DNA of 64,000 bases from Fibrobacterales bacterium (GCA_051532055.1 JAOPTX010000036.1:1-64000); one strand, 5' to 3'; counted from the first letter of the stretch, positions 1 through 12,303 are shown. The notes: generated by a model from the letters alone, not told the origin. Numbers and translations: made by a program.

Positions 1-559
1 CTGCTCCTGCGCCAGTAGAAATGCTGAGAGAACCGGTAGTAAGGGCATCAATAGACATTGTGATGTTATCAACTCCCGCACTGTCATTTGCACCAATGTG
101 AAGTATTGATGATGATGATCCACTGGTTCCGAATGAATTTGCACCATTACCGATGAGGGTTTGTGTGTTATATTGGGTGGCATTTGCAATTCGGTCTATT
201 TCATCACCGAGGGCAACATACTCCTGTTGTAGATATGATCTATCAGTTGAAGTAAGAGTGTCATTGGCAGATTGTACAGAAAGTTCACGCATTCTTTGAA
301 GAATACTTGAAATCTCATTAGCCGCCCCTTCAGCAACTTGTAGTAGTGCAACGCCATCTTGTGCATTAGATTTTGCACGATTTAATCCTCTAACCTGAGT
401 ACGTAACTGTTCCGAAACTGAGAGCCCTGCGGCATCATCAGCAGCTCGGTTGATACGTAGTCCGGTAGATAGTTTTTCAAGTGATTTTCCCAGTCCATTA
501 TTTGCACTTGCAAGTGAATTCTGGGTTATCAACGAATTGATGTTGTGGTTAATACGCAT
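1..559 (-). CDS. fliC: Flagellin fla1 (partial; 3' end runs off the left edge)
   Basis: ATG at 557-559 gives MRINHNINSLITQNSLASANNGLGKSLEKLSTGLRINRAADDAAGLS..., near-identical to fla4/fla6; not in the ORF track because there is no stop in the window. Confidence 0.95.
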   Translation of the reverse strand, partial: MRINHNINSLITQNSLASANNGLGKSLEKLSTGLRINRAADDAAGLSVSEQLRTQVRGLNRAKSNAQDGVALLQVAEGAANEISSILQRMRELSVQSANDTLTSTDRSYLQQEYVALGDEIDRIANATQYNTQTLIGNGANSFGTSGSSSSILHIGANDSAGVDNITMSIDALTTGSLSISTGAGA

Positions 560-602
560 AATAAACCTCCATGTTTTTTTGCGTCAGCTGCTTCCGTGCA
601 GC
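560..602 (-). promoter_or_regulatory. CsrA-type binding hairpins in the fla1 leader
   Basis: GCTGC-ACGGAA-GCAGC (587-602) and AAAC-ATGGAG-GTTT overlapping the SD. Confidence 0.75.
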
Positions 603-630
603 CAGTAGGTGTAGTAACTCCTATTATGAT

Positions 631-658
631 AGATCGGAGGGGGGGGGAGGAAACTTTA
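631..658 (-). promoter_or_regulatory. sigma28 (FliA)-type promoter of fla1, with a G9/C9 tract in the spacer
   Basis: Minus strand TAAAGTTT-N12-TCCGATCT; consensus TAAAGTTT-N11-GCCGATAA. Confidence 0.8.
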
Positions 659-897
659 ATTGTTTTCTTAAGTTTTACCTTAAGGAGTGAATTAAGTTTT
701 GTGTTAGGTGCAATGAAGAATTATGAACGGTGTTAAATGTCGTAGTGTAATGTGAAGGATTGTAAGCATCAAAAGAGTATAGGTGGCTCTATGAGAAACA
801 CATCTGTGTGTTTGTTATAGCGGTACGAATGCTCAATGGCGAATTACAAAATCCCTGACTGATTTTTAATCATAGCTATTTAATGAGCTTGATTGTC

Positions 898-1764
898 CTA
901 GCCAATAAGCGCTAGTGCCGCTTGTGGTGTGGCGTTAGACTGCGCCAACATTGACGTAGAAGATTGGGTTAGTATTTGATTACGGGTGAGTTGAGTCGAT
1001 TCCGAGGCGAAATCGACATCACGAATGCGTGACTCCGCATCTTGAGTATTGAACTCTTGATTGTAGATGTTGTTCATAGCATGTTCAAGCCTATTTACAA
1101 AAGCACCCACATTTGATCGCATAGTATTGACTGATGTTATTGCTGAATCTATTGCGGTAATAGAGCTCATTGCAGCGCTTTGCGTTGAAACACCGATGGT
1201 AGTAGTGGCACCGGCTGCAGTAGAGATACCTAAGGAACCGGTAGTAATGGCATCAATGCTAATAGCAATGTTATCAATACCGGTACCGGCATTGACCCCA
1301 ATTTGTAGAATCGATGATGAAGACCCACTTGCGCCAAATCTGTTGGGCCCATCGCCGATCACTGTTTGAGTATTGTATTGAGTGGCATTTGCAATACGAT
1401 CTATTTCGTCTGCGAGAGCGACATACTCTTGTTGCAGGTAGCTTCTGTCAGTAGAGGTGAGAGTGTCATTCGCAGACTGTACTGAGAGTTCACGCATTCT
1501 TTGAAGGGTCGAAGAAATTTCATTGGCGGCGCCCTCTGCAATTTGCAGGAGAGCAACTCCATCTTGCGCATTAGCGCGCGCCCGCCCGAGTCCACGTATT
1601 TGTGTGCGGAGTTCTTCAGATACAGAGAGTCCGGCAGCGTCATCCGATGCGTGATTAATCCGTAACCCAGTCGATAACTTTTGCAATGATGAATTCAGGC
1701 TGCTATTGGCTTTGCCAAGCGCGTCCTGTGTAATCATAGAACTGATGTTATGGTTAATCCGCAC
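898..1764 (-). CDS. fliC: Flagellin fla2 (288 aa, GTG start)
   Basis: Flagellin N-terminal motif (LSTGLRINHASDDAAGL) and C-terminal motif (AESRIRDVDFASE...MLAQSN). Confidence 0.97.
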   Translation of the reverse strand: MRINHNISSMITQDALGKANSSLNSSLQKLSTGLRINHASDDAAGLSVSEELRTQIRGLGRARANAQDGVALLQIAEGAANEISSTLQRMRELSVQSANDTLTSTDRSYLQQEYVALADEIDRIANATQYNTQTVIGDGPNRFGASGSSSSILQIGVNAGTGIDNIAISIDAITTGSLGISTAAGATTTIGVSTQSAAMSSITAIDSAITSVNTMRSNVGAFVNRLEHAMNNIYNQEFNTQDAESRIRDVDFASESTQLTRNQILTQSSTSMLAQSNATPQAALALIG

Positions 1765-1768
1765 GTTC

Positions 1769-1860
1769 AGCCTCCTTGCCTCTTTGCGCCTGTAACTTCC
1801 ATGTTACAGGGGGTGTCTTACCCTATTAAAGAGTATCGGCGAGGCTCAAGTAAAACTTTA
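1769..1860 (-). promoter_or_regulatory. sigma28 promoter and CsrA hairpins of fla2
   Basis: TAAAGTTT-N12-GCCGATAC (1833-1860); CCTGTAAC-ATGGAA-GTTACAGG (1789-1810); GGC-AAGGAG-GCT at the SD. Confidence 0.8.
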
Positions 1861-1939
1861 GCGTTATTTCAGTATTTGCTTCAGGTTTTGCATCGTGTTG
1901 TTGAAAATATCAATGAGGAAATAAAAAAATCTAAAAACC

Positions 1940-1972
1940 AAAAAAGGGGCCGGCGAATGCCGGCCCCTTTTT
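1940..1972 (-). terminator. Intrinsic terminator after fla3 (bidirectional geometry)
   Basis: AAAAAGGGGCCGGC-GAAT-GCCGGCCCCTTTTT. Confidence 0.85.
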
Positions 1973-1993
1973 GAACATGGTATTGTTTTAAGG

Positions 1994-2854
1994 TTACCCG
2001 AGGAGTGCGAGTGCCCCTTGTGGGACAGCATTTGCTTGCGCTAACATTGATGTTGATGATTGGGTTAGTATTTGATTTTTGGTAAATCGTGTTGATTCGG
2101 TAGCAAAGTCTACATCTCTGATTCTCGATTCCGCATCCTGTGTATTAAATTCCTGATTGTTTATATTGTTTATTGCGTGCTCAAGTCGGTTTACGTACGC
2201 ACCCATATCTGAGCGCATTGCATTGACAGAATTGATGGCAATATCAAGGGACGAAATTGCTAACATTGCAGCAGATTGCGTGGATACACCCGATGCCCCT
2301 GTTCCACCTGTAGTAATAGAGAGTGACCCTGTCGTAATAGAATCAATGCCTATCGAGATGTTGTCGATTCCCGCTTGGTTGTTTGCACCAACGTGAAGAA
2401 TAGAGGCAATAGAGCCGCTTGCCCCAAAAGTATTTGCGCCATTCCCAATTAGAGTCATGGTATTGTATTGAGCAGAGTTTGCAATGCGGTCAATTTCATC
2501 GGCAAGTGCTGTATATTCTTGCTGTAGATAAGAACGATCGACAGAGGTAAGGGTATCATTCGCTGACTGAATTGAAAGCTCTCTCATTCGTTGTAATATA
2601 GAAGTGATTTCGTTTGCGGCCCCCTCTGCTACTTGTAAGAGGGCGACGCCATCTTGAGCATTGAGTTTGGCCCGAGCAAGTCCTCGTACCTGAGTACGAA
2701 GTTCTTCAGAAACTGAGAGTCCTGCAGCATCGTCTGCAGCTCTATTAATTCTGAGTCCAGTAGATAGTTTTTCAAGTGATTTGCCCAGGGTCCCATTAGC
2801 AGCGTAGAGTGCATTTTGGGTGATCATTGCCGAGATATTATGATTTATACGCAT
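1994..2854 (-). CDS. fliC: Flagellin fla3 (286 aa)
   Basis: Flagellin motifs; start moved from 2905 to the MRINHN ATG at 2852-2854, which has a GGAGG SD like its paralogs. Confidence 0.97.
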   Translation of the reverse strand: MRINHNISAMITQNALYAANGTLGKSLEKLSTGLRINRAADDAAGLSVSEELRTQVRGLARAKLNAQDGVALLQVAEGAANEITSILQRMRELSIQSANDTLTSVDRSYLQQEYTALADEIDRIANSAQYNTMTLIGNGANTFGASGSIASILHVGANNQAGIDNISIGIDSITTGSLSITTGGTGASGVSTQSAAMLAISSLDIAINSVNAMRSDMGAYVNRLEHAINNINNQEFNTQDAESRIRDVDFATESTRFTKNQILTQSSTSMLAQANAVPQGALALLG

Positions 2855-2857
2855 TGT

Positions 2858-2946
2858 AAACCTCCATGTTCTTTTGCGTGTTCGCCGCATCCTTGCGACT
2901 GTCATGTTCTATATCTCTTATATCGCTTATGAAAAGAATTACTTAA
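2858..2946 (-). promoter_or_regulatory. Degenerate sigma28 promoter and CsrA hairpins of fla3
   Basis: CGCA-AGGA-TGCG (2886-2897); AACATGGAGG at the SD; TTAAGT...GCGATAT promoter-like (about 2920-2946). Confidence 0.6.
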
Positions 2947-3032
2947 TACTTTTTGCTAAGAAAGTTTCAAAAAAACAAATAAACCCAAAAAACTTAAAGT
3001 TAAATATATTGTGAAAGTTAAGAATGTGAAGT

Positions 3033-3065
3033 AAAAAGTAAAGCACCGCCTGGGGGCGGTGCTTT
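3033..3065 (-). terminator. Intrinsic terminator after fla4
   Basis: Minus strand AAAGCACCGCC-CCCA-GGCGGTGCTTT followed by ACTTTTT. Confidence 0.8.
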
Positions 3066-3094
3066 GAAAAAATGATATAGGGTTAAGTGAATGA

Positions 3095-3961
3095 TTATCC
3101 AATAAGAGCGAGTGCTCCTTGTGGAACTGCATTTGCTTGTGCCAACATCGAAGTAGATGATTGAGTAAGAATCTGGTTTCTTGTGAAGCTGGTAGATTCT
3201 GTTGCAAAGTCTACATCTCTAATACGTGATTCCGCATCTTGAGTATTAAACTCTTGATTCGAAATATTATTCATTGCATGTTCAAGACGATTTACATAGG
3301 CACCCATGTCTGATCTCATGGTGTTCACTGATGTAATTGCAGTATCAATAGCGGTAATTGATGCCATAGCTGCAGCTTGAGTAGACACGCCTATTGTAGT
3401 AGTCGCGCCTGTTCCTGTTGAAATACCAAGTGACCCAGTAGTAAGAGCATCAATTGACATTGTGATGTTATCAACACCGACATTATCATTTGCACCAATG
3501 TGAAGGATTGAAGATGAAGAGCCGCTTGTACCAAAAGCATTCGCACCATTACCAATGAGTGTTTGAGTATTGTATTGAGTCGCATTTGCAATACGGTCGA
3601 TTTCATCACCGAGTGCCACATATTCCTGCTGTAGATATGATCTATCAGTAGAAGTAAGGGTGTCATTCGCTGATTGAACCGAGAGTTCTCTCATTCTTTG
3701 AAGAATAGAAGAGATCTCATTTGCTGCACCCTCAGCTACCTGTAAGAGTGCAACGCCGTCTTGGGCATTTGATTTTGCTCTACCAAGACCACGTACTTGT
3801 GTTCTTAATTGTTCGGAAACAGAGAGTCCCGCTGCATCATCTGCTGCTCGGTTAATCCGTAGACCGGTTGAGAGTTTTTCCAGTGATTTTCCAAGTCCGT
3901 TATTTGCCGCACCGAGAGCATTCTGGGTAATAAGTGAATTGATGTTGTGATTAATACGCAT
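3095..3961 (-). CDS. fliC: Flagellin fla4 (288 aa)
   Basis: Flagellin N/C motifs; near-duplicate of fla6. Confidence 0.97.
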   Translation of the reverse strand: MRINHNINSLITQNALGAANNGLGKSLEKLSTGLRINRAADDAAGLSVSEQLRTQVRGLGRAKSNAQDGVALLQVAEGAANEISSILQRMRELSVQSANDTLTSTDRSYLQQEYVALGDEIDRIANATQYNTQTLIGNGANAFGTSGSSSSILHIGANDNVGVDNITMSIDALTTGSLGISTGTGATTTIGVSTQAAAMASITAIDTAITSVNTMRSDMGAYVNRLEHAMNNISNQEFNTQDAESRIRDVDFATESTSFTRNQILTQSSTSMLAQANAVPQGALALIG

Positions 3962-3962
3962 T

Positions 3963-4066
3963 ATAAACCTCCATGTTTATTGGTATCCTGCATCCTTGCA
4001 GTTGTTAGGAAAGCAGTAAGTCTGAATTCCTTTTAAACATATCGACGGTAGTGATTTAAAACTTGA
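3963..4066 (-). promoter_or_regulatory. sigma28 promoter and CsrA hairpins of fla4
   Basis: TCAAGTTT-N12-GTCGATAT (4039-4066); CTGCA-AGGA-TGCAG (3988-4001); ATAAAC-ATGGAG-GTTTAT at the SD. Confidence 0.78.
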
Positions 4067-4185
4067 AGTAATTCTTACTAAAATGTTAAATATTGAAATT
4101 AAAACAGGAGTTATAGTTGTAGTAGGGGCCACTATAGCTCTTTAAAGCTATGGCCAGGGGGCTGGTTATTGTGCGGGGAGAGGGC

Positions 4186-4220
4186 AAAAAAATAAAGCCC
4201 CCTGTAGGAAGGAGACTTTA
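4186..4220 (-). terminator. Intrinsic terminator (sRNA A / fla5)
   Basis: TAAAGTCTCCT-TCCTAC-AGGGGGCTTTA followed by T7. Confidence 0.75.
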
Positions 4221-4282
4221 CTTTGGAGTTAGTACTGGGTGTTACCCGAGTTGTGCATCTGCGTATCAAACATATGCACAAT
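4186..4282 (-). ncRNA. Candidate antisense sRNA A (independent transcript or fla5 3'UTR-derived), complementary to the fla7 leader and start
   Basis: Hairpin TTGTGCAT-(15-nt loop)-ATGCACAA whose loop is antisense to ATGCGTATCAATCATA; a second block antisense to 8359-8384; ends in terminator 4186-4220; upstream TAAAGTTT-N12-CCCTATAT (4285-4312). Confidence 0.55.
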
Positions 4283-4395
4283 ATATATAGGGAGAATTTC
4301 GTTAAAACTTTAGACCTTTTTATATTTTGGTATGAACGAGGGAATAATGCTGTGCATAAAAAGAGGGATTGGTTATAACGATGGAGCGTTGATTA

Positions 4396-5988
4396 CTACC
4401 CGATAAGGGTAAGTGCAGCATTGGAAACACCATTAGCTTGCGAGAGCATGGCGGTTGCAGACTGTGTTAGGATCTGCTGTTTGGTAAATGCAGTAGATTC
4501 TGTTGCAAAATCAACATCGCGAATACGAGACTCTGCATCTTGTTGATTGAACTCTTGATTGTGTAAATTTTGAATTGAGTGTTCAAGGCGATTGATATGG
4601 GCGCCCACATCAGAGCGTTTTGTTGAGACTGTTGAGATAGCCGTTCCAACGACACCGATACTGGCGTGTGCACCAGTACGACTGCCAACTGAGGCGGCGT
4701 CAACTCCTAGGGCACCACCAGAAACAGATCCTAAGCCATCGAGATCCATTGTGTCGACATCTTCTACGGCATTTGCGCCAATATGCATTTGGAGTGCCTC
4801 ACCAATATCAAATGAGACTCCGGTAAAGCCTTCACCTGTGATAGTGGTTCCGACTTGATCACCAAATGCTGATGCATAGGCTGGGTCTCCAGTATTAAGA
4901 TTTTGTGCTAAAAACCCTGCCTCAAAAGCGGCATAAGTACCGCCAAAAGTTGCAGTTATATTTGCTTCGAGTTGTGCTGATCCACTAATGGTTGTTCCGT
5001 AGATGTCATCAATAGAGCCTGCGCCATTTTGGATAAACATTGCGGCAAGATACGCAGTTGCATAATCTTCATCTGAACCACTCCATGTATTATGGTCAAT
5101 ACTTCCGCCACTTGCAAATGATGACGCCGCTATAATTGCAGCAGTATTGGCGTAACTCCCTGCTAATAAGCTGGTAACCCGAGACTCACCGCCAGCATTA
5201 CTTGCTTCAGCAGCACCTTCGGAGAACCATGTGGGTGGCTGATGTCCATTGATATACTGAAGGGCATGGGTCATTTCGTGAGAGAGAATATCTTGGGCGG
5301 AAAAAACGTTACCGAGGTGATTCATGGGTCCGTCAGCGTTGGCATCCCCTGTTACCTGGGCATTAAAATCATCTAAATCGAGGTTAATGACCGCTTGAGT
5401 ACCGTCAGATCCGCCAGTGGCTAAGAGACCTGCTTCACCATCCATGTTTTCGCCAGTGACGTGGAGGTTGCCAAAGGCCGATAGATTGCTATAGGCATTT
5501 TGTACCGTGGCAGCCGCCCCGGGAAGCCAGTCATTTGTCAGTTTGTCTATTAATTCTTCTGCGTTATCAGCTCCGCCACGTAATACTTGAATGCCATTAT
5601 ATTGTGTAGCATCATTTATGCGAGTCAATTCTTCTGAAAGAGCAGTGAATTCTTGATCGATATATGAGCGGTCTTCATCAGTAAGGGTGTCACTTGCAGA
5701 TTGTATTGCTAATTGGCGTTGGCGCTGTAAAATAGAGTGAGCTTCATTCATCGCCCCTTCAGCAACTTGAAGAAGGGCGACGCCATCCTCCGCATTGTGT
5801 CGGGCACGATTATTACCTCTGATTTGAGATCGCAGTTGTTCGGAAACAGAGAGTCCGGCAGCATCATCAGAAGCGCGATTAATCCGCAAGCCCGTAGAGA
5901 GCTTATGCAGAGAATCACCCAAAGCATTGTTCGCTGAATTAAGCGAATTCTGGGTAATAAGTGCGCTGATGTTGTGATTGATCCTCAA
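4396..5988 (-). CDS. fliC: Flagellin fla5 with inserted gluzincin metallopeptidase domain (flagellinolysin-like), 530 aa, TTG start
   Basis: Flagellin N/C domains flank a ~240-aa insert with SHEMTHALQ (HExxH, 5266-5280) and PTWFSEGAAE (5206-5229). Confidence 0.9.
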   Translation of the reverse strand: MRINHNISALITQNSLNSANNALGDSLHKLSTGLRINRASDDAAGLSVSEQLRSQIRGNNRARHNAEDGVALLQVAEGAMNEAHSILQRQRQLAIQSASDTLTDEDRSYIDQEFTALSEELTRINDATQYNGIQVLRGGADNAEELIDKLTNDWLPGAAATVQNAYSNLSAFGNLHVTGENMDGEAGLLATGGSDGTQAVINLDLDDFNAQVTGDANADGPMNHLGNVFSAQDILSHEMTHALQYINGHQPPTWFSEGAAEASNAGGESRVTSLLAGSYANTAAIIAASSFASGGSIDHNTWSGSDEDYATAYLAAMFIQNGAGSIDDIYGTTISGSAQLEANITATFGGTYAAFEAGFLAQNLNTGDPAYASAFGDQVGTTITGEGFTGVSFDIGEALQMHIGANAVEDVDTMDLDGLGSVSGGALGVDAASVGSRTGAHASIGVVGTAISTVSTKRSDVGAHINRLEHSIQNLHNQEFNQQDAESRIRDVDFATESTAFTKQQILTQSATAMLSQANGVSNAALTLIG

Positions 5989-5991
5989 AAC

Positions 5992-6082
5992 CTACATCCG
6001 TGTTACTAAAAAGAAACGCCTTCCGCTTCCATGCGGATTTAGGCCCTATTGCATTGATCGGCCGCCTAGAGTAAAATCTTGA
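5992..6082 (-). promoter_or_regulatory. sigma28 promoter and CsrA sites of fla5
   Basis: TCAAGATT-N12-GCCGATCA (6055-6082); TCCGC-ATGGAA-GCGGA (6022-6037); ACACGGATGT (5994-6003) next to the start. Confidence 0.8.
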
Positions 6083-6183
6083 GCAAAAATTTAAAAAAAG
6101 TTAAGCAAAATACTCATAAGAAAGCGAAGGCAAAACTTAATGCGGTGCATGAGCGAGGACCGCTTGTAATAAGTGAAAAAACT

Positions 6184-6208
6184 AAAAAGACCAGCTGATG
6201 CTGGTCTT
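6184..6208 (-). terminator. Intrinsic terminator after fla6
   Basis: AAGACCAGC-ATCA-GCTGGTCTTTTT. Confidence 0.8.
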
Positions 6209-6236
6209 AAATGGATTGTCTTTTGAATGAGAATGG

Positions 6237-7103
6237 TTATCCAATAAGAGCGAGTGCTCCTTGTGGAACTGCATTTGCTTGTGCCAACATCGAAGTAGAT
6301 GATTGAGTAAGAATCTGGTTTCTGGTGAAGCTGGTAGATTCTGTTGCAAAGTCCACATCTCTAATACGTGATTCCGCATCTTGAGTATTAAACTCTTGAT
6401 TCGCAATATTGTTCATTGCATGTTCAAGACGATTTACATAGGCACCCATATCTGATCTCATGGTGTTCACTGAGGTAATTGCCGTATCAATAGCGGTAAT
6501 TGATGCCATGGCTGCTGCCTGTGTTGAAACGCCAACAGTCGTTCCTGCTCCTGCTCCAGTAGAAATACTGAGAGAACCAGTAGTAAGGGCATCAATAGAC
6601 ATTGTGATATTGTCAACGCCAACATTGTCATTTGCACCAATGTGAAGGATTGAAGATGAAGAGCCGCTTGTACCAAAAGCATTCGCGCCATTGCCAATGA
6701 GTGTTTGAGTATTGTATTGAGTCGCATTTGCAATACGGTCGATTTCATCACCGAGTGCTACATATTCTTGCTGCAGATATGATCTATCAGTAGAAGTAAG
6801 GGTGTCATTCGCTGATTGAACCGAGAGCTCTCTCATTCTTTGGAGAATAGAAGAGATCTCATTTGCCGCACCCTCAGCAACCTGTAAGAGTGCAACGCCA
6901 TCTTGAGCATTTGATTTTGCTCTATTAAGACCACGTACTTGTGTTCTTAATTGTTCGGAAACAGAGAGTCCCGCTGCATCATCTGCTGCGCGATTAATCC
7001 GTAGTCCGGTAGAGAGTTTTTCTAGTGACTTTCCAAGTCCGTTGTTAGCGGAGCCAAGAGCATTTTGAGTAATTAATGAATTGATGTTGTGATTAATACG
7101 CAT
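6237..7103 (-). CDS. fliC: Flagellin fla6 (288 aa)
   Basis: Flagellin N/C motifs. Confidence 0.97.
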   Translation of the reverse strand: MRINHNINSLITQNALGSANNGLGKSLEKLSTGLRINRAADDAAGLSVSEQLRTQVRGLNRAKSNAQDGVALLQVAEGAANEISSILQRMRELSVQSANDTLTSTDRSYLQQEYVALGDEIDRIANATQYNTQTLIGNGANAFGTSGSSSSILHIGANDNVGVDNITMSIDALTTGSLSISTGAGAGTTVGVSTQAAAMASITAIDTAITSVNTMRSDMGAYVNRLEHAMNNIANQEFNTQDAESRIRDVDFATESTSFTRNQILTQSSTSMLAQANAVPQGALALIG

Positions 7104-7106
7104 AGT

Positions 7107-7193
7107 AAACCTCCATGTTTTGCGTGTTTGCCACTTCCGTGTGGCACTTAAGTCTCTAATAGAAGTATCGGTAAAACCTAAAGGAGATCTTTA
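7107..7193 (-). promoter_or_regulatory. sigma28 promoter and CsrA hairpins of fla6
   Basis: TAAAGATC-N13-ACCGATAC (7165-7193); TGCCAC-ACGGAA-GTGGCA (7129-7146); AAAC-ATGGAG-GTTT at the SD. Confidence 0.78.
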
Positions 7194-7318
7194 GAAAAAA
7201 ATAGAGAGAGGCGATAAAAGCTGGATATTTTTTAGAAAGCTAAAGTGGAACTAAATGAAGAATCTAGAGTGAAACCTGGGGCTGATGTTAATGATTGTTT
7301 TTTGGTTGATTTGAGGCG

Positions 7319-7343
7319 AAAAAAAAAGGGTCATTTCTGACCC
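7319..7343 (-). terminator. Intrinsic terminator after fla7
   Basis: GGGTCA-GAAA-TGACCC followed by T9. Confidence 0.85.
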
Positions 7344-7384
7344 CTCGTGCATTAAAGTTCTTTTTAAAAAGTGTACTGTCTTAT

Positions 7385-8242
7385 TTATCCGATAAGAGCA
7401 AGTGCACTTTGTGGTGCTGCATTTGCTTGTGCCAACATAGAAACAGATGACTGGGTTAATATTTGGGTTCTGGTAAACTCAGTTGATTCAGATGCGAAAT
7501 CAACATCACGAATTCGAGATTCAGCATCTTGCGAGTTAAACTCTTGGTTCGAAATATTGGTCATTGCATGTTCAAGTCTATTCACATAGGCGCCAATATC
7601 TGAACGCATCGAGTTTACTGAGGCAATTGCAGAGTCGAGTGTGGTTATTGCTGTTGTTGCTGCAGCTTGTGTTGAAACACCGACAGCCCCCGTACCGCTG
7701 GTACTAATACTGAGTGACCCCGAGGTCAGTGCAGTCATCGATATAGTGACGCTGTCAGCGGAAGTCGCATTAGCCCCAATATGGAGTACTGATGATGATG
7801 AACCAGAGGCGCCAAATGAGTTGGTTCCTCCATCTATGAGTGTTTGCCCATTGTATTGTGAACTGCTTGAGATACGGTCAACTTCTGCAGCAAGCGCTGA
7901 GAACTCTTGATCGAGATAGCCGCGGTCTGTTGAGGTGAGGGTGTCATTCGCCGCTTGAACCGAGAGTTCCCGCATTCTTTGGAGAATTTCTGACATCTCA
8001 TTTGCAGCACCTTCAGCAACTTGAAGAAGCGCTACGCCATCTTGTGCATTGGCCTTTGCGCGGCCCAGACCTCTGATTTGTGAACGTAACTGTTCAGAAA
8101 CAGAGAGTCCCGCAGCATCATCAGCGGCTCTATTGATTCTAAGACCAGTTGAAAGTTTTTCGAGTGATTTACCCATATTGGTATTTGCATTCGCAAGTGA
8201 GTTTTGGGTAATAAGTGAATTGATGTTATGATTGATACGCAT
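7385..8242 (-). CDS. fliC: Flagellin fla7 (285 aa)
   Basis: Flagellin N/C motifs; closest to fla8. Confidence 0.97.
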   Translation of the reverse strand: MRINHNINSLITQNSLANANTNMGKSLEKLSTGLRINRAADDAAGLSVSEQLRSQIRGLGRAKANAQDGVALLQVAEGAANEMSEILQRMRELSVQAANDTLTSTDRGYLDQEFSALAAEVDRISSSSQYNGQTLIDGGTNSFGASGSSSSVLHIGANATSADSVTISMTALTSGSLSISTSGTGAVGVSTQAAATTAITTLDSAIASVNSMRSDIGAYVNRLEHAMTNISNQEFNSQDAESRIRDVDFASESTEFTRTQILTQSSVSMLAQANAAPQSALALIG

Positions 8243-8243
8243 G

Positions 8244-8420
8244 ATAAACCTCCATGTTTATTTCTGAACAAAGCAGTGGCCCTACACCATGCAGTGTTCT
8301 ATGCATTTGTGCCACATCCATGTGGCGGGTTTTGTGTTTGGGACTGGTCTGGATTGATACTCCGTAACAGCCTGTATTAACTCCTATTTCATATTTCGGA
8401 GAGGCTTACTGAAATCTTTA
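8244..8420 (-). promoter_or_regulatory. sigma28 promoter and long (~145 nt) leader of fla7 with CsrA hairpins
   Basis: TAAAGATT-N12-TCCGAAAT (8393-8420); GCCACA-TGGA-TGTGGC (8311-8326); ATAAAC-ATGGAG-GTTTAT at the SD. Confidence 0.75.
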
Positions 8421-8545
8421 ATGTTTTTTTTGCAAAAAAAATGAAAACTGTTTATTATATGAAATAAATGGCCAATGCGTCCCATACGGGCCATATATAA
8501 AAAGAGAATTAGAAAGGGGATTTTGAAATGCTGGAGGTAGAAATT

Positions 8546-8617
8546 AAAAAAGCCCAAACGGAGCGGGCCTTTTTAAAAAGATTTGTGTACGGAAATACAC
8601 ATCAACCTTTAATGCAT
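8546..8617 (-). ncRNA. Candidate sigma28-driven antisense sRNA B (~70 nt) complementary to the fla8 leader
   Basis: Lies after the fla8 terminator; own promoter TAAAGTTT-N12-AACGATAT (8623-8650); hairpin TGTGTA-TTTCCG-TACACA; terminator GGCCC-GCTCCGTTT-GGGCTTTTTT; no ORF; 15/15 and 14/15 complementarity to 9687-9701 and 9627-9641. Confidence 0.7.
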
Positions 8618-8669
8618 TTATAATATCGTTTTATGACAATTAAAACTTTAGAGAAATATGAGAGAAAAT

Positions 8670-8699
8670 AAAAAAGACCGAAATTTTCATTTCGGCCTT
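8670..8699 (-). terminator. Intrinsic terminator after fla8
   Basis: AAGGCCGAAAT-GAAA-ATTTCGGTCTTTTTT. Confidence 0.85.
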
Positions 8700-8746
8700 C
8701 GGAGTTAATACCTGCGTATCAGGTATTGGTGTATTGTAGGGTACTT

Positions 8747-9604
8747 TTAATTGAGGAGTGCAAGGGCAGACTGCGGAGCAGTATTTGCCTGCGCTAACAT
8801 AGAGACAGATGATTGAGTCAAAATCTGAGTTCTGGTGAACTCGGTTGATTCTGAAGCAAAATCCACATCACGAATCCGTGATTCCGCATCTTGTGTGTTA
8901 AACTCCTGATTGGCGAGATTGTTGATTGCATGTTCGAGTCTATTCACATAGGCGCCAACATCAGATCTCATGGTATTTACTGAGGTGATTGCAGTATCTA
9001 TTGACGATATTGCCGTGAGTGCAGATGCTTGAGTTGATACGCCCACCGCACTTGTTCCTGATGTAGATATAGCAAGTGATCCAGTAGTGAGGGCGCTCAT
9101 TGATATACTAATACTGTCTGAAGTTGTTGCATTTGCACCGATATGGAGTACCGATGATGATGAACCGCTCACACCAAAAGAGCTGTTGCCGCCATCGATG
9201 AGGGTCTGTCCATTGTACTGAGAGCTATTGGATATTCTATCGACTTCTGCAGCGAGTGAACTAAACTCCTGATCGAGATATCCACGATCAGTTGAAGTCA
9301 ATGTATCATTTGCTGCCTGTACAGAGAGTTCTCTCATTCTTTGCAAAACTTCAGAAATCTCATTTGCGGCTCCTTCCGCTACTTGTAGTAGCGCAATGCC
9401 GTCTTGTGCATTTGCTTTTGCACGACCGAGCCCTCTGATTTGTGAACGTAATTGCTCTGATACTGAGAGTCCTGCAGCATCATCTGCAGCTGTATTGATT
9501 CTGAGTCCAGTAGAAAGTTTTTGTAGTGATTCGCCCATTTTGCCATTCGCATGAGCAAGCGCGTTCTGAGTTATCAACGAATTGATATTGTGATTGATAC
9601 GCAT
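8747..9604 (-). CDS. fliC: Flagellin fla8 (285 aa)
   Basis: Flagellin N/C motifs. Confidence 0.97.
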   Translation of the reverse strand: MRINHNINSLITQNALAHANGKMGESLQKLSTGLRINTAADDAAGLSVSEQLRSQIRGLGRAKANAQDGIALLQVAEGAANEISEVLQRMRELSVQAANDTLTSTDRGYLDQEFSSLAAEVDRISNSSQYNGQTLIDGGNSSFGVSGSSSSVLHIGANATTSDSISISMSALTTGSLAISTSGTSAVGVSTQASALTAISSIDTAITSVNTMRSDVGAYVNRLEHAINNLANQEFNTQDAESRIRDVDFASESTEFTRTQILTQSSVSMLAQANTAPQSALALLN

Positions 9605-9750
9605 TATAAACCTCCGTGTTTATAAAGATGTGTACTTCCGTGTATTGGTGATATTCGTATTATTTCCGTAAACGAGTATCTCTGTTTGCATTAAAGGTTG
9701 AGGATATGAAGTCCTCCTTAAAATTATCGGGAGGATTATCAAAATCTTTA
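9605..9750 (-). promoter_or_regulatory. sigma28 promoter and leader of fla8 with several ANGGA sites
   Basis: TAAAGATT-N11-CCCGATAA (9724-9750); TAC-ACGGAA-GTA (about 9633-9644); TTATAAAC-ACGGAG-GTTTATAA at the SD; TACGGAAATA (9661-9670). Confidence 0.8.
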
Positions 9751-9869
9751 GAGAAAACTTTAAATAAAGTTATGGAAAAGAAATAAACTTTTTAAAGTGC
9801 CTTTAATTGCGATTAAAAGAGGTTTTTTTAGAGAGTGAGATAGGGGGTTTGTGACACCGATAACGATTA

Positions 9870-10364
9870 TTATCGGTGTTGTTCTATGGTTGGCTCCTCG
9901 GAACCTTCATCTGGAGTAGTAAAATCCGAATGATTAAATTCAGAATATATATTGGAACGGAGATTTCTTTGTGATTCAAACTCCTCACGGTCGATATTCT
10001 GCATAAAGTACAGGTCTTTAGAAAAGCTACGGAGCATAATTTGTTCTTGTACTACTTTATCGAGTTCAGAATCATCAAAACCGAGTATGAATATTGAGGA
10101 TTGATCATCATCACCAAAAATTTCAAATTCTTCCATAATATTTATACTGGTGTCTGCAGATGGTTGATTTTCCAGTGTTGTGGCTACTGGTGTTTGAGAG
10201 GGTGAATTTAGGGCGACTGTATCGGGAGCTGTTGATGATGTTTGTGACTCTATAGGGGCCTCAAGTATTGGCGGTATCGAGTCTGTGGCAAGAGAATCAC
10301 TCTGCTCTGCATGGGCGATGGTTATCACACAGATGATTACGGGTATGAGGTATTTAATAATCAT
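9870..10364 (-). CDS. Hypothetical exported acidic protein
   Basis: ATG overlaps the tsaD stop (TAATG); hydrophobic N-terminus ending AHA; S/T/P-rich linker. Confidence 0.6.
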   Translation of the reverse strand: MIIKYLIPVIICVITIAHAEQSDSLATDSIPPILEAPIESQTSSTAPDTVALNSPSQTPVATTLENQPSADTSINIMEEFEIFGDDDQSSIFILGFDDSELDKVVQEQIMLRSFSKDLYFMQNIDREEFESQRNLRSNIYSEFNHSDFTTPDEGSEEPTIEQHR

Positions 10365-11371
10365 TACTTTCCAAGCTCCAGCCATGGGGTTACTGCATCG
10401 TCAGTTAAATGTAACATATTTGAATTTTTTTTGAGTTGCCCGATTGCTGCGATCATTGCTCCATTATCGGTGCAATACTCAAAGTCAGGGAAAAAGGCCG
10501 TAAAATTATTTTTCTTACCGAGGGTTTCCATTCTTTTTCTCAGATGACGATTTGCTGAAACGCCACCACATACAACAATATGGCTCAGTCCTGTTTTTTT
10601 AAGGGCCCACATGCTCTTTTCGCACAATATATCAACGATAGCCTCTTCAAGTGAGGCGCAAATGTCTTTGAGGTTTTCTTGAATGAACTCTTCACTGTTG
10701 TCCTGGACATATCTAAGGACGGACGTTTTGAGTCCAGAGAATGAGAATTCACCAGTGTCTTGTTTTGCGAAGCTTCGAGGGAATCGAACAAATTTTCTGT
10801 TGCCGCCATCGGCAGCTTTGCCAACAACGGGGCCGGCGGGGTAGCCCAAGCCAAGGAGTTTTCCACATTTATCGAATGCTTCACCGGCTGCGTCATCACG
10901 AGTACGACCCAGTAGTTCATATTCAAAGTTTTCTTTCACTAAGGTAAGTTCAGTGTGGCCGCCTGAAACAGTAAGGCAGCAAAAAGGTGGTTGAATGTCT
11001 GGATTGCTAAGGAAGACTGCAGCGATGTGCCCTTCAAGGTGGTTAATGCCAATACTGGGTATTTGAAGGTCGTGGGCAAGGCCTTTTGCAAATGATGCGC
11101 CTACAAGTAGAGGACCCATGAGTCCAGGGCCTCGGGTATAAGCAATTTGGTCGATGTCATTAATGGTAAGACCAGATGTTGTCAGGGCCTCATCCACTAT
11201 TGCAGAAATTTTTTCAAGGTGGGCACGGGCGGCAATTTCAGGAACGACGCCCCCAAAAGAACGATGTTCTTTGATTTGAGAATAAAGACAGTTTGCGTAT
11301 ACTTTTAGGGTGTCATCGACGATACCGCAAGCAGTTTCGTCACATGAGCTTTCTATGCCAAGGGTAATCAT
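10364..11371 (-). CDS. tsaD: tRNA N6-threonylcarbamoyltransferase TsaD
   Basis: LGIESSCDET, GGVVPEIAARAH, NHLEGH, VSGGHT, DDAAGEAFDK, CTDNGAMIA. Confidence 0.97.
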   Translation of the reverse strand: MITLGIESSCDETACGIVDDTLKVYANCLYSQIKEHRSFGGVVPEIAARAHLEKISAIVDEALTTSGLTINDIDQIAYTRGPGLMGPLLVGASFAKGLAHDLQIPSIGINHLEGHIAAVFLSNPDIQPPFCCLTVSGGHTELTLVKENFEYELLGRTRDDAAGEAFDKCGKLLGLGYPAGPVVGKAADGGNRKFVRFPRSFAKQDTGEFSFSGLKTSVLRYVQDNSEEFIQENLKDICASLEEAIVDILCEKSMWALKKTGLSHIVVCGGVSANRHLRKRMETLGKKNNFTAFFPDFEYCTDNGAMIAAIGQLKKNSNMLHLTDDAVTPWLELGK

Positions 11372-12303
11372 ATCAAGGTATCCTGAATGGTTGTTGAATC
11401 AACTATAAGTTCAAATTCTTTCGGGGCGAGGTCAAAAGATTGTATTTCACCCTGTATACTCACTGTTGGATTCAATTTCTTTTTGTTTTCTATGCTAAAA
11501 CGATTGTACTCAATAAAGAGTGTAATGTCATCGGGCGTTAAGGTCTCGAGAATGCTTTTTGCACCGGTAATGGTGATCGAAGCACTACTGGGTACTAAGC
11601 GATAGGTAAAGGAATCTTTTGGGGAATTCAGTAGTGAAACAGCAATATCAGAAAATGGTTTAATTCTTAATGGCTCGATAGCGATAGTTATTTTAGTTTG
11701 GTTTTCTTTTTGTTCAATAAGACTTGGAAGTGGAGAAAGGGCCACTTGCATAGTGGTGTCGTGATTCAGTGCACTCAAGGTTATGGGGGCAGTTGGAATT
11801 TCGAAAATTTTTGTTACGAGGCTCCGGGCCCCAGATATGGTGATATATTTGGGTGAAATGAGAGGTGGTTTACTGAGAATGAAGTTGGGGGAGGGCTCGA
11901 CGGTTACTCTATTGCGTACGGGTATTTGTTTTGATATTCTCGTTTCAGCATTGATTACTAAGTTCTCATCGTTAAAAATTGTAATAAGAGTCACGTCACC
12001 CGTAGGTGGCTTCATAAAATGACGTTTATGAGGGAAAATGGTGTTTTCACCAAGCTTTAAGTTGGCGAGGTCAAAGAGAAAATGTCCTGGAGTCTCTCTA
12101 TTTAAAATGAGGTCCTTCCCTTTGCCTCTGATTTCAGCCTTGATGGTCTTTGGAAACTGGTTCATTAAAGCCATGGCCCGTGGAATATTTTGAGTTATAA
12201 CGGGAAGTTCAGCGGTGTAAGTATACTGCCTTTCGGACATCACATAGAACCAAAGCAATAAGGCACAGAAAAAGGCGGCAAATTTTAAGGTCATGTTCTT
12301 CAT
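11368..12303 (-). CDS. YbbR/CdaR-like membrane-anchored protein
   Basis: N-terminal ALLLWFYV anchor and repeated YbbR-like segments (PKTIKAEIRG, PKYITISGARS, PSSASITITGAKS). Confidence 0.7.
   Translation of the reverse strand: MKNMTLKFAAFFCALLLWFYVMSERQYTYTAELPVITQNIPRAMALMNQFPKTIKAEIRGKGKDLILNRETPGHFLFDLANLKLGENTIFPHKRHFMKPPTGDVTLITIFNDENLVINAETRISKQIPVRNRVTVEPSPNFILSKPPLISPKYITISGARSLVTKIFEIPTAPITLSALNHDTTMQVALSPLPSLIEQKENQTKITIAIEPLRIKPFSDIAVSLLNSPKDSFTYRLVPSSASITITGAKSILETLTPDDITLFIEYNRFSIENKKKLNPTVSIQGEIQSFDLAPKEFELIVDSTTIQDTLI

Follow-up and report, generated by a model that had tools for sequence, protein, structure and literature searches.

The first 9.6 kb of a 64,000-nucleotide (nt) stretch of DNA from a Fibrobacterales bacterium (GCA_051532055.1 JAOPTX010000036.1:1-64000, hereafter the window) carry eight flagellin genes, fla1 to fla8, on the minus strand. 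At the end of the fifth of them, fla5 (4396-5988, minus strand), lies an element of about 95 nt, here called small RNA (sRNA) A (4186-4280, minus strand), which, with somewhat better than even confidence, can be taken for a functional regulatory RNA that forms the 3' end of every fla5 transcript and is directed at the mRNA of a paralog, fla7 (7385-8242, minus strand). An earlier, sequence-only reading of the same stretch had placed at this point an sRNA, or a processed fla5 3' untranslated region (3'UTR), that blocks fla7 translation, and a discrete, selected element was indeed found exactly there, between a promoter-like block and a terminator. A selected antisense RNA aimed at fla7 is well supported for this position. 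The case for it is built on its predicted pairings combined with its conservation, and confidence in it is raised most by the recurrence of the design in the fla8 3'UTR, in a second RNA of the window (sRNA B) and in relatives. The accumulation of sRNA A, its biogenesis, the direction of its effect and its physiological link to the protease-type flagellin encoded by fla5 are inferred.

In the minimum-free-energy fold (from about 4281 to 4186; –33.1 kcal/mol), sRNA A consists of two hairpins, a single-stranded linker and a terminator. Hairpin 1 (4252..4280, minus strand) has a stem of 7 base pairs (bp), formed by 4280-4274 with 4258-4252, and a 15-nt loop, AUGUUUGAUACGCAG (4259..4273, minus strand), which is antisense to the flagellin start codon region and whose core UUGAUACGCA pairs with UGCGUAUCAA. 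The second pairing segment (4225..4251, minus strand), antisense to the 5' end of the fla7 leader, comprises the weak hairpin 2, with GGGU at 4247-4244 paired to ACCC at 4240-4237, and the single-stranded ACUAACUCC. The Rho-independent terminator (4186..4224, minus strand), already noticed before, is made of an A/U-extended stem around a G+C core at 4214-4198 and a U tract ending at 4186; the core stem has 6 pairs, the tail reads CTTTATTTTT, and in the minimum-free-energy fold the extended stem reaches 15 bp. A scan of positions 1-12000 against Rfam gave 11 matches at expectation values (E) up to 1, none reaching the gathering score, and the sole match overlapping sRNA A was a sub-gathering hit of ctRNA_p42d (24.6 bits) on the terminator.

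Conservation was assessed on one species pair, by global alignment of two 15-kb stretches from this genome and from G001, a member of the same genus that is syntenic for all eight flagellin genes. The body of sRNA A is identical at 91/95 positions, the –35 box of the promoter-like block upstream of it at 8/8 and the –10 block up to the stem at 13/13; the corresponding figures are 6/11 for the promoter spacer (4294-4304), 61/83 for the 3'UTR upstream of the –35 (4313..4395) and 84/125 for the spacer downstream of the U tract. Third codon positions are identical at 201/336 in tsaD (59.8%), 184/312 in ybbR (59.0%) and 322/531 in fla5 (60.6%), and intergenic spacers at 42-73%. Conservation sets in with the promoter-like motif and lasts as far as the U tract, with divergence directly downstream. 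Two of the four substitutions in 95 positions form a compensatory pair in hairpin 1 (G4279-C4253 to A-U), one converts a G-C into a G.U pair in hairpin 2, and the last affects a base outside the predicted pairs; loop, linker and terminator have none. A double change of CA to UU in the congener weakens hairpin 2 from –6.0 to –2.6 kcal/mol, whereas pairing with the fla7 leader, which is unchanged there, gains in strength (–23.0 to –25.4 kcal/mol), a hint, from this one species pair, that the hairpin-2 segment serves as a pairing surface and not as a structural hairpin. Taken as a whole, the alignment shows sRNA A to be under strong purifying selection with structure-preserving substitutions.

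The complementarities to flagellin mRNAs previously described were all recovered. When reverse-complemented, 4260-4274 (minus strand, TATGTTTGATACGCA) agrees with the fla7 start region (8227-8241) at 14/15 positions, shares a perfect 10-nt run, TGCGTATCAA, with the fla8 start, and differs at a single position, read as a G.U pair, from the starts of fla1, fla4 and fla6. For 4225-4251, the reverse complement can be aligned with the fla7 leader at 8359-8384, giving 22/27 identities and one 1-nt gap, and its last 11 nt match 611-621 at fla1 at 10/11. Two target sites are accordingly predicted on the fla7 mRNA (both minus strand): site 1 covers the start codon and codons 2-5 (8227..8242; duplex –20.8 to –22.6, net about –6.3 kcal/mol), and site 2 covers the first ~25 nt of the leader (8359..8384; duplex –23.0, net –6.4 kcal/mol), immediately downstream of the –10 of the fla7 sigma-28 promoter. 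About 115 nt of leader separate the two sites. At ~150 nt, the fla7 leader as a whole is of unusual length; it is also highly structured and shares 178/181 positions (98%) with the congener. On the fla7 start the 10-nt loop seed alone yields –12.9 kcal/mol, with opening costs of 3.5 and 2.8 kcal/mol (2.8 for the fla7 site). These values derive from windowed duplexes and opening energies, the whole-leader RNAduplex calculation being uninformative as it allowed huge interior loops.

Once accessibility is taken into account, net energies are favourable for fla7 only (–6.4 at the leader 5' end, –6.3 kcal/mol at the start codon), and the best site on each of the other seven flagellin mRNAs gives –1.0 kcal/mol or worse. 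The earlier focus on fla7 is therefore upheld by the model, which predicts it as the sole good target, with two sites; fla8, fla1, fla4 and fla6, which had been put forward as secondary targets, drop out on the same calculation. Statistical support was sought with dinucleotide shuffles of the 60-nt non-terminator core and is moderate. Of 1000 shuffles, 16 gave 10 nt or more of uninterrupted Watson-Crick pairing with any of the eight flagellin start regions, and 9 of 300 gave an equal or better 24-nt-window duplex energy against those regions. In a further shuffle test, the 10-nt antisense run to a start region (–25..+15) was reached by 10/500. Antisense local alignment to the fla7 leader scored 27, a value also attained by 6/2000 core shuffles and by 0/2000 shuffled versions of the isolated 27-nt segment; a control in the sense orientation scored 15. 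A crude call of translation starts over the genome yielded 6223 regions, among which fla7 ranks 5th for the duplex with the loop segment (–20.8 kcal/mol; mean –9.1, standard deviation 2.8).

As to the origin of the RNA, no terminator-like site was found on the minus strand between 4396 and 4214, so that the element belongs to the fla5 3'UTR and fla5 transcripts, lacking a terminator of their own, must enter it. The proximal 3'UTR (4313..4395, minus strand) is likewise terminator-free and shows only weak A-U pairing in the fold. Co-transcription with fla5, one of the two origins proposed earlier, is what the sequence predicts. Since the fla5 promoter (TCAAGATT...GCCGATCA) is of the sigma-28 type, the 3'UTR form would depend on sigma-28, and the genome encodes FliA (259.5 bits). 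Upstream of the element stands the block already recognised as a perfect sigma-28 –35 with a poor –10: the –35 box TAAAGTTT (4305..4312, minus strand), an 11-nt spacer (4294-4304) and a degenerate –10 block, TCCCTATA (4293-4286) plus TATAT (together 4281..4293, minus strand), which can be read as a weak –10 for sigma-28, as a sigma-70-like TATATT or as a processing site rich in A and U. A free form of sRNA A may arise in two ways: by transcription from this conserved, if degenerate, sigma-28-like promoter, or through cleavage by an RNase within the AU-rich block upstream of hairpin 1. A start at the purine 4279 would fit sigma-28 spacing, and the co-varying pair would then be the first base pair; for cleavage of the fla5 transcript, the AU-rich UAUAUAUAUU stretch (UAUAUAUU tract) is a candidate site, and an RNase E/G homologue is encoded in the genome (304 bits).

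The proposed mechanism is as follows. The 15-nt loop of hairpin 1 would pair with the fla7 start codon region, and the segment of weak structure that precedes the terminator would bind the leading ~25 nt of the same mRNA, the ~115 nt in between looping out. Neither Hfq nor a member of the ProQ/FinO family gave a match in the genome, which is 94% complete, and pairing would then probably begin as a contact between the loop and single-stranded mRNA, independently of those chaperones. An occupied start codon would exclude the 30S subunit and lower fla7 translation; repression is the expected direction because the pairing covers the AUG. The output of fla7 would consequently drop at the time when fla5 and the late flagellar genes are transcribed, and the mix of flagellins in the filament would shift.

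The same design is met twice more in the window. sRNA B (8545..8650, minus strand), lying between fla8 and fla7, is a short RNA with a terminator and an orphan canonical sigma-28 promoter at 8650-8623 (TAAAGTTT...CGATAT). It is antisense to the fla8 leader at 15/15 positions (9687-9701) and 10/10 positions (9661-9670), a score that 0/1000 shuffles reach, and in the congener its body is identical at 73/75 positions with a diverged promoter spacer. A 21-nt piece of it carries no antisense to start regions beyond what 393 and 424 of 500 shuffles reach, its targets lying further upstream, in the fla8 leader. The second is a miniature element in the fla8 3'UTR (8701..8727, minus strand), in which a 6-bp hairpin with the 9-nt loop UGAUACGCA is followed by AACUCC and by the terminator (8700-8673). 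Every base of this loop can pair with UGCGUAUCA, which is present at the starts of both fla8 and fla7, and the loop could serve to join the 5' and 3' parts of its own mRNA or to pair in trans. The core GAUACGCA is common to this loop and to that of hairpin 1 of sRNA A, the two hairpins being different, and both loops open by eye with a UUGA or CUGA that looks YUNR-like.

Across the order, flagellin genes were found in 17/121 sampled genomes, and the fetched flagellin loci of 11 further genomes were surveyed. In five of these (G002, G005, G067, G079 and G086, from families f2 and f4), an orphan sigma-28 promoter next to a flagellin gene is followed by a terminated RNA of 60-100 nt. The perfect antisense run to a flagellin start of the same genome measures 13 nt in G002, 9 in G005, 15 in G067, 16 in G079 and 10 in G086, and is reached by 0, 7, 0, 0 and 2 of 500 shuffles, respectively. 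The versions of G067 (L040, G067:C51, 4334-4435, minus strand), G079 (L044, G079:C480, 2557-2660, minus strand) and G086 (L038, G086:C42, 3973-4085, plus strand), all three behind orphan sigma-28 promoters, are homologous and alignable, with 6 compensatory pairs and co-varying terminator stems; they begin AUGCGCAUUG(A/G)AAAC, antisense to GUUUUCAAUGCGCAU at the adjacent flagellin start. Those of G002 (L035, G002:C74, 1369-1500, minus strand; a 13-nt anti-Shine-Dalgarno segment, UUAAACCUCCAUG), G005 (L043, G005:C3, 3141-3240, plus strand; a 9-nt anti-start segment, UACGCAUUC) and the present genome (G000) look unrelated in sequence. In genus g11 (G057, G069, G084, G090, G112, G118), no orphan sigma-28 antisense sRNA was found in the stretches fetched.

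Like the orphan RNAs (L035, L038, L040, L043, L044 and sRNA B), sRNA A directly follows a flagellin gene, is preceded by a –35 of the TAAAGTTT type, is short and closed by a Rho-independent terminator, and has near its 5' end a segment antisense to a flagellin start; with its 10 nt it also falls among the short terminated RNAs beside a flagellin gene that have at least 9 nt of perfect antisense. It differs from them in three respects: the –10 is CTAT instead of the canonical CGAT; there is no terminator between fla5 and sRNA A, whereas the upstream flagellin gene has its own where examined (L038, L040, L043); and a covariance model detects no sequence homology. That model (R1), run against 22 sources, returned the two known copies only (next best 14.4 bits, E 0.46), and in five whole genomes nothing convincing (best E 0.086), so that no homologue is detected outside the genus. 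A DNA search of 41 genomes of the order likewise found the region in G001 only, and scans with the fla5 protein gave a single close locus, in genome_contigs, with no such locus in metagenome_contigs; the remaining matches were flagellins about 50% identical.

The survey yielded some further observations. A candidate on the plus strand of L040 at 5796 was rejected, its promoter match being weak (CAAAGAAA...CGAAT) and its position antisense within a flagellin gene. The 3'UTRs of two orthologous flagellin genes, in L040 (4279-4287, minus strand) and L046 (G079:C178, 2912-2924, minus strand), contain, directly before the terminator, segments of 9 and 13 nt that are antisense to the start, ACCAUGAGAAU, of other flagellin paralogs, in parallel to the fla8 3'UTR element. 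In L042 (G005:C124, 3694-3730, plus strand), a flagellin leader has AUUCUCAU about 20 nt upstream of its own AUGAGAAU start, and an 8-bp stem could sequester the start codon. On the opposite strand, 22- and 14-nt matches to flagellin starts occur at L053 (G112:C51, 3537-3580, minus strand) and L052 (G090:C76, 3765-3778, plus strand), respectively; no sigma-28 promoter was found nearby, and they may be duplicated leader fragments.

The remaining genes of the cluster, all on the minus strand, are fla1 (2-559, truncated at the contig end), fla2 (898-1764), fla3 (1994-2854), fla4 (3095-3961), fla6 (6237-7103) and fla8 (8747-9604). Each of the eight has a sigma-28-type promoter, made of a TAAAGTTT-like –35 and a –10 with a CGA core (CGAT in seven, CGAA in fla7). 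A regular-expression scan of the whole genome for sigma-28 promoters gave 146 matches, mostly random, and is too loose to define a regulon. fla5 encodes 530 amino acids from a TTG start, with Flagellin_N and Flagellin_C domains at its ends and a central insert containing HEMTH (HEXXH); peptidase Pfam matches to the insert (Peptidase_M91, BSP, M9) are all sub-threshold, and the name protease-flagellin is plausible on these features. The fla5 leader (5989-6089, minus strand) has a weak Shine-Dalgarno sequence and a terminator-like hairpin at 6030-6012. All eight fla leaders (e.g., 585-600, 7130-7150, 8300-8330) show by eye a hairpin loop A(C/U/A)GGA(A/U)G and a GGAGG Shine-Dalgarno, the pattern of CsrA sites, and csrA (G000:C10:100228-100383) adjoins a further flagellin gene. 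The 5' part of the fla7 leader (8350-8385, minus strand; GGAGUUAAUAC...CGGAGUAUCAAUCC) resembles a decayed flagellin Shine-Dalgarno and start region. A marine metatranscriptome (X1), assembled into contigs, covers parts of fla3, fla4, fla5, fla7 and fla8 with no listed differences from positions 1-10400 of the window, which indicates that the RNA library contained flagellin mRNAs from this organism or from a strain very close to it.

Several points weigh against the reading of sRNA A as a regulator of fla7. Each complementarity taken alone is only moderately unlikely by chance (p about 0.003-0.03), and a net energy of about –6 kcal/mol per fla7 site is modest; a duplex extending beyond the loop needs hairpin 1 melted, at an opening cost of 10.9 kcal/mol. 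The –10 reads CCCTATAT (CTAT), T replacing the G of the CGA core that is present in all nine other sigma-28 promoters of the cluster (eight fla genes and sRNA B), which makes independent sigma-28 transcription doubtful; the regular expression for a canonical promoter (TAAAGTTT-like –35, 11-15 nt spacer, CGA(T/A)), which finds sRNA B and the five foreign examples, does not match that of sRNA A. The element occurs in just one other genome, where all target sites are unchanged and thus show no co-variation with the sRNA. X1 is the sole RNA run with the locus and consists of contigs, which show neither ends nor small RNAs; the 347-nt bin with sRNA A has a depth of 0.89, no listed contig spans the element, and the contigs are uninformative here. 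Lastly, the similarity to the fla7 leader could be the trace of an inverted duplication and not a working interface.

This last point leads to the best surviving alternative, which is nonetheless rather unlikely, namely that sRNA A is a cis-acting module of the fla5 3'UTR alone, ending transcription and shielding the mRNA from 3' exonucleases, and that its match to fla7 is a leftover of inverted duplication. Such a module would account for the absence of any other fla5 terminator, for conserved stems and terminator with one co-varying stem pair, for a –10 without the CGA core and for the moderate pairing statistics. It would not account for an invariant 15-nt loop and 9-nt linker, which stability does not need and which stand against neutral sites about 60% identical, nor for the same loop core in a different stem of the fla8 3'UTR; moreover, the sole hairpin 2 substitutions weaken the stem yet improve the fla7 pairing, the –35 and –10 are conserved around a diverged spacer, and five other genomes possess free-standing antisense sRNA genes of the same design. 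A regulatory RNA directed at fla7 remains the preferred reading, and within it the sign of the effect may also be questioned: sRNA A might pair with fla7 and activate or stabilise it, by capping the leader 5' end against 5'-end-dependent RNases or by remodelling the leader. The predicted net energy is the stronger at the extreme 5' end of the mRNA, the leader has the length, structure and conservation given above, and FlaX of Vibrio is reported to activate two minor flagellins (10.64898/2026.08.28.747715). Against this stands the hairpin 1 loop, which covers the AUG and codons 2-5 and would normally prevent 30S binding, and the fla7 start is predicted to be fairly open already (2.8 kcal/mol for the 10-nt site), with no occlusion to relieve; activation stays in play, though as an improbable alternative.

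The other explanations carry very little weight. A 14-codon peptide, MFDTQMHNSGNTQY, could be read from an ATG inside the hairpin 1 loop, in a frame that is open in both genomes and in which one of the four substitutions is synonymous (CAC to CAT); that ATG, however, sits inside a hairpin with no preceding Shine-Dalgarno sequence, the other in-frame change is a two-base replacement of Q by L, and conservation runs on through the non-coding linker and terminator, so that translation of the element is very improbable. Equally hard to credit is a role as a protein-binding decoy, such as a sponge for CsrA, which the genome encodes and whose presumed GGA-loop and GGAGG sites were seen by eye in each fla leader, since no GGA motif occurs in any loop or single-stranded part of sRNA A. 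Least probable of all is a non-functional recombination relic of the flagellin tandem array: the plus strand of the element does read as a flagellin leader start fused to ATG-proximal codons, but 91/95 identity against ~60% at neutral sites, sharp borders and a compensatory pair speak against it.

A broader picture can be offered, though only tentatively: flagellated Fibrobacterales may possess a network of chaperone-independent, fast-evolving, paralog-specific antisense RNAs, each born by inverted duplication of the 5' region of its target, as has been proposed for young plant microRNAs. The RNAs concerned are of two kinds, free-standing sigma-28 genes or segments embedded in flagellin 3'UTRs. 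In the window, sRNA A (acting on fla7), sRNA B (on fla8) and the fla8 3'UTR loop would together set which flagellins enter the filament, and sRNA A would couple a rise of the protease-type flagellin to a fall of a structural paralog.

The closest known system is that of Vibrio. V. cholerae FlaX is an RNA of ~265 nt that has no promoter of its own, is released by RNase E and bound by ProQ, blocks 30S binding and alters filament composition (PMC11879080). A 2026 preprint describes three flagellin-3'UTR sRNAs in Vibrio and the activation of other paralogs; in it, FlaX is reported to activate two minor flagellins in that it unfolds a structure by which the ribosome-binding site is masked (10.64898/2026.08.28.747715). 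In these accounts FlaX occurs in V. cholerae and V. parahaemolyticus, with sibling 3'UTR sRNAs called Vcr77/Vcr78 or FlaY/FlaZ (PMC11879080; 10.64898/2026.08.28.747715). Like FlaX, sRNA A lies in the 3'UTR of one of several flagellin paralogs and should, by prediction, bind the 5' region of a paralogous mRNA at several places and hinder initiation, and, as with FlaX, FlaY and FlaZ, several flagellin genes of the cluster carry such elements. The differences are equally clear. sRNA A measures ~95 nt against ~265 nt, its pairing covers the AUG from a hairpin loop, it has a conserved internal promoter-like block, and it belongs to Fibrobacterota and not to Gammaproteobacteria; FlaX is bound by ProQ, whereas neither ProQ nor Hfq was found in the genome of sRNA A, and FlaX is proven experimentally whereas sRNA A is known from its sequence. 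No relationship to FlaX was detected, as judged by Rfam gathering scores and not by direct sequence comparison.

In E. coli, where FliX, UhpU, MotR and FlgO represent sigma-28-dependent sRNAs, FliX is described as processed from the fliC 3'UTR, sigma-28-dependent and Hfq-bound, pairing within the fliC coding sequence and also with ribosomal protein mRNAs, and the same report shows with UhpU that a 3'UTR sRNA with its own sigma-28 promoter is also possible (PMC10578931). By analogy with FliX, sRNA A would come from a sigma-28-transcribed flagellin 3'UTR and act on a flagellin mRNA; the sites of FliX lie inside the fliC coding sequence, in contrast to the AUG and the leader 5' end of a paralog, and FliX binds Hfq, which was not found here. 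A third parallel is provided by the antisense RNAs of plasmids and toxin-antitoxin systems, which present their target-complementary bases in a loop, initiate by kissing-loop contact, are cis-encoded and are fully complementary to their targets. sRNA A resembles them in carrying such bases in a hairpin loop with no evident chaperone, and departs from them in being trans-encoded, with 10-15 nt of pairing per site.

In a literature search whose coverage left subscription journals outside, no paper on such RNAs in Fibrobacterota was found. sRNA A looks like a functional, yet non-homologous, counterpart of FlaX and FliX. With the fla7 leader it would make a compact pair, an RNA of ~95 nt and a leader of 150 nt joined at two sites, and it hints at a way in which a cell might balance an enzyme-bearing flagellin against the structural ones as they are built into the filament. 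The control of flagellin paralogs by flagellin 3'UTR sRNAs was shown only recently, in Vibrio and E. coli, where it depends on ProQ or Hfq; the same logic would here operate in a phylum that is unrelated and uncultured and from which both chaperones seem to be absent, with parts non-homologous to known sRNAs. At least four forms of the design, unrelated in sequence, occur in three families of the order, which points to convergent evolution of RNA control over filament composition, and what is new with respect to the known systems is this recurrent, apparently chaperone-free design across an uncultured order.

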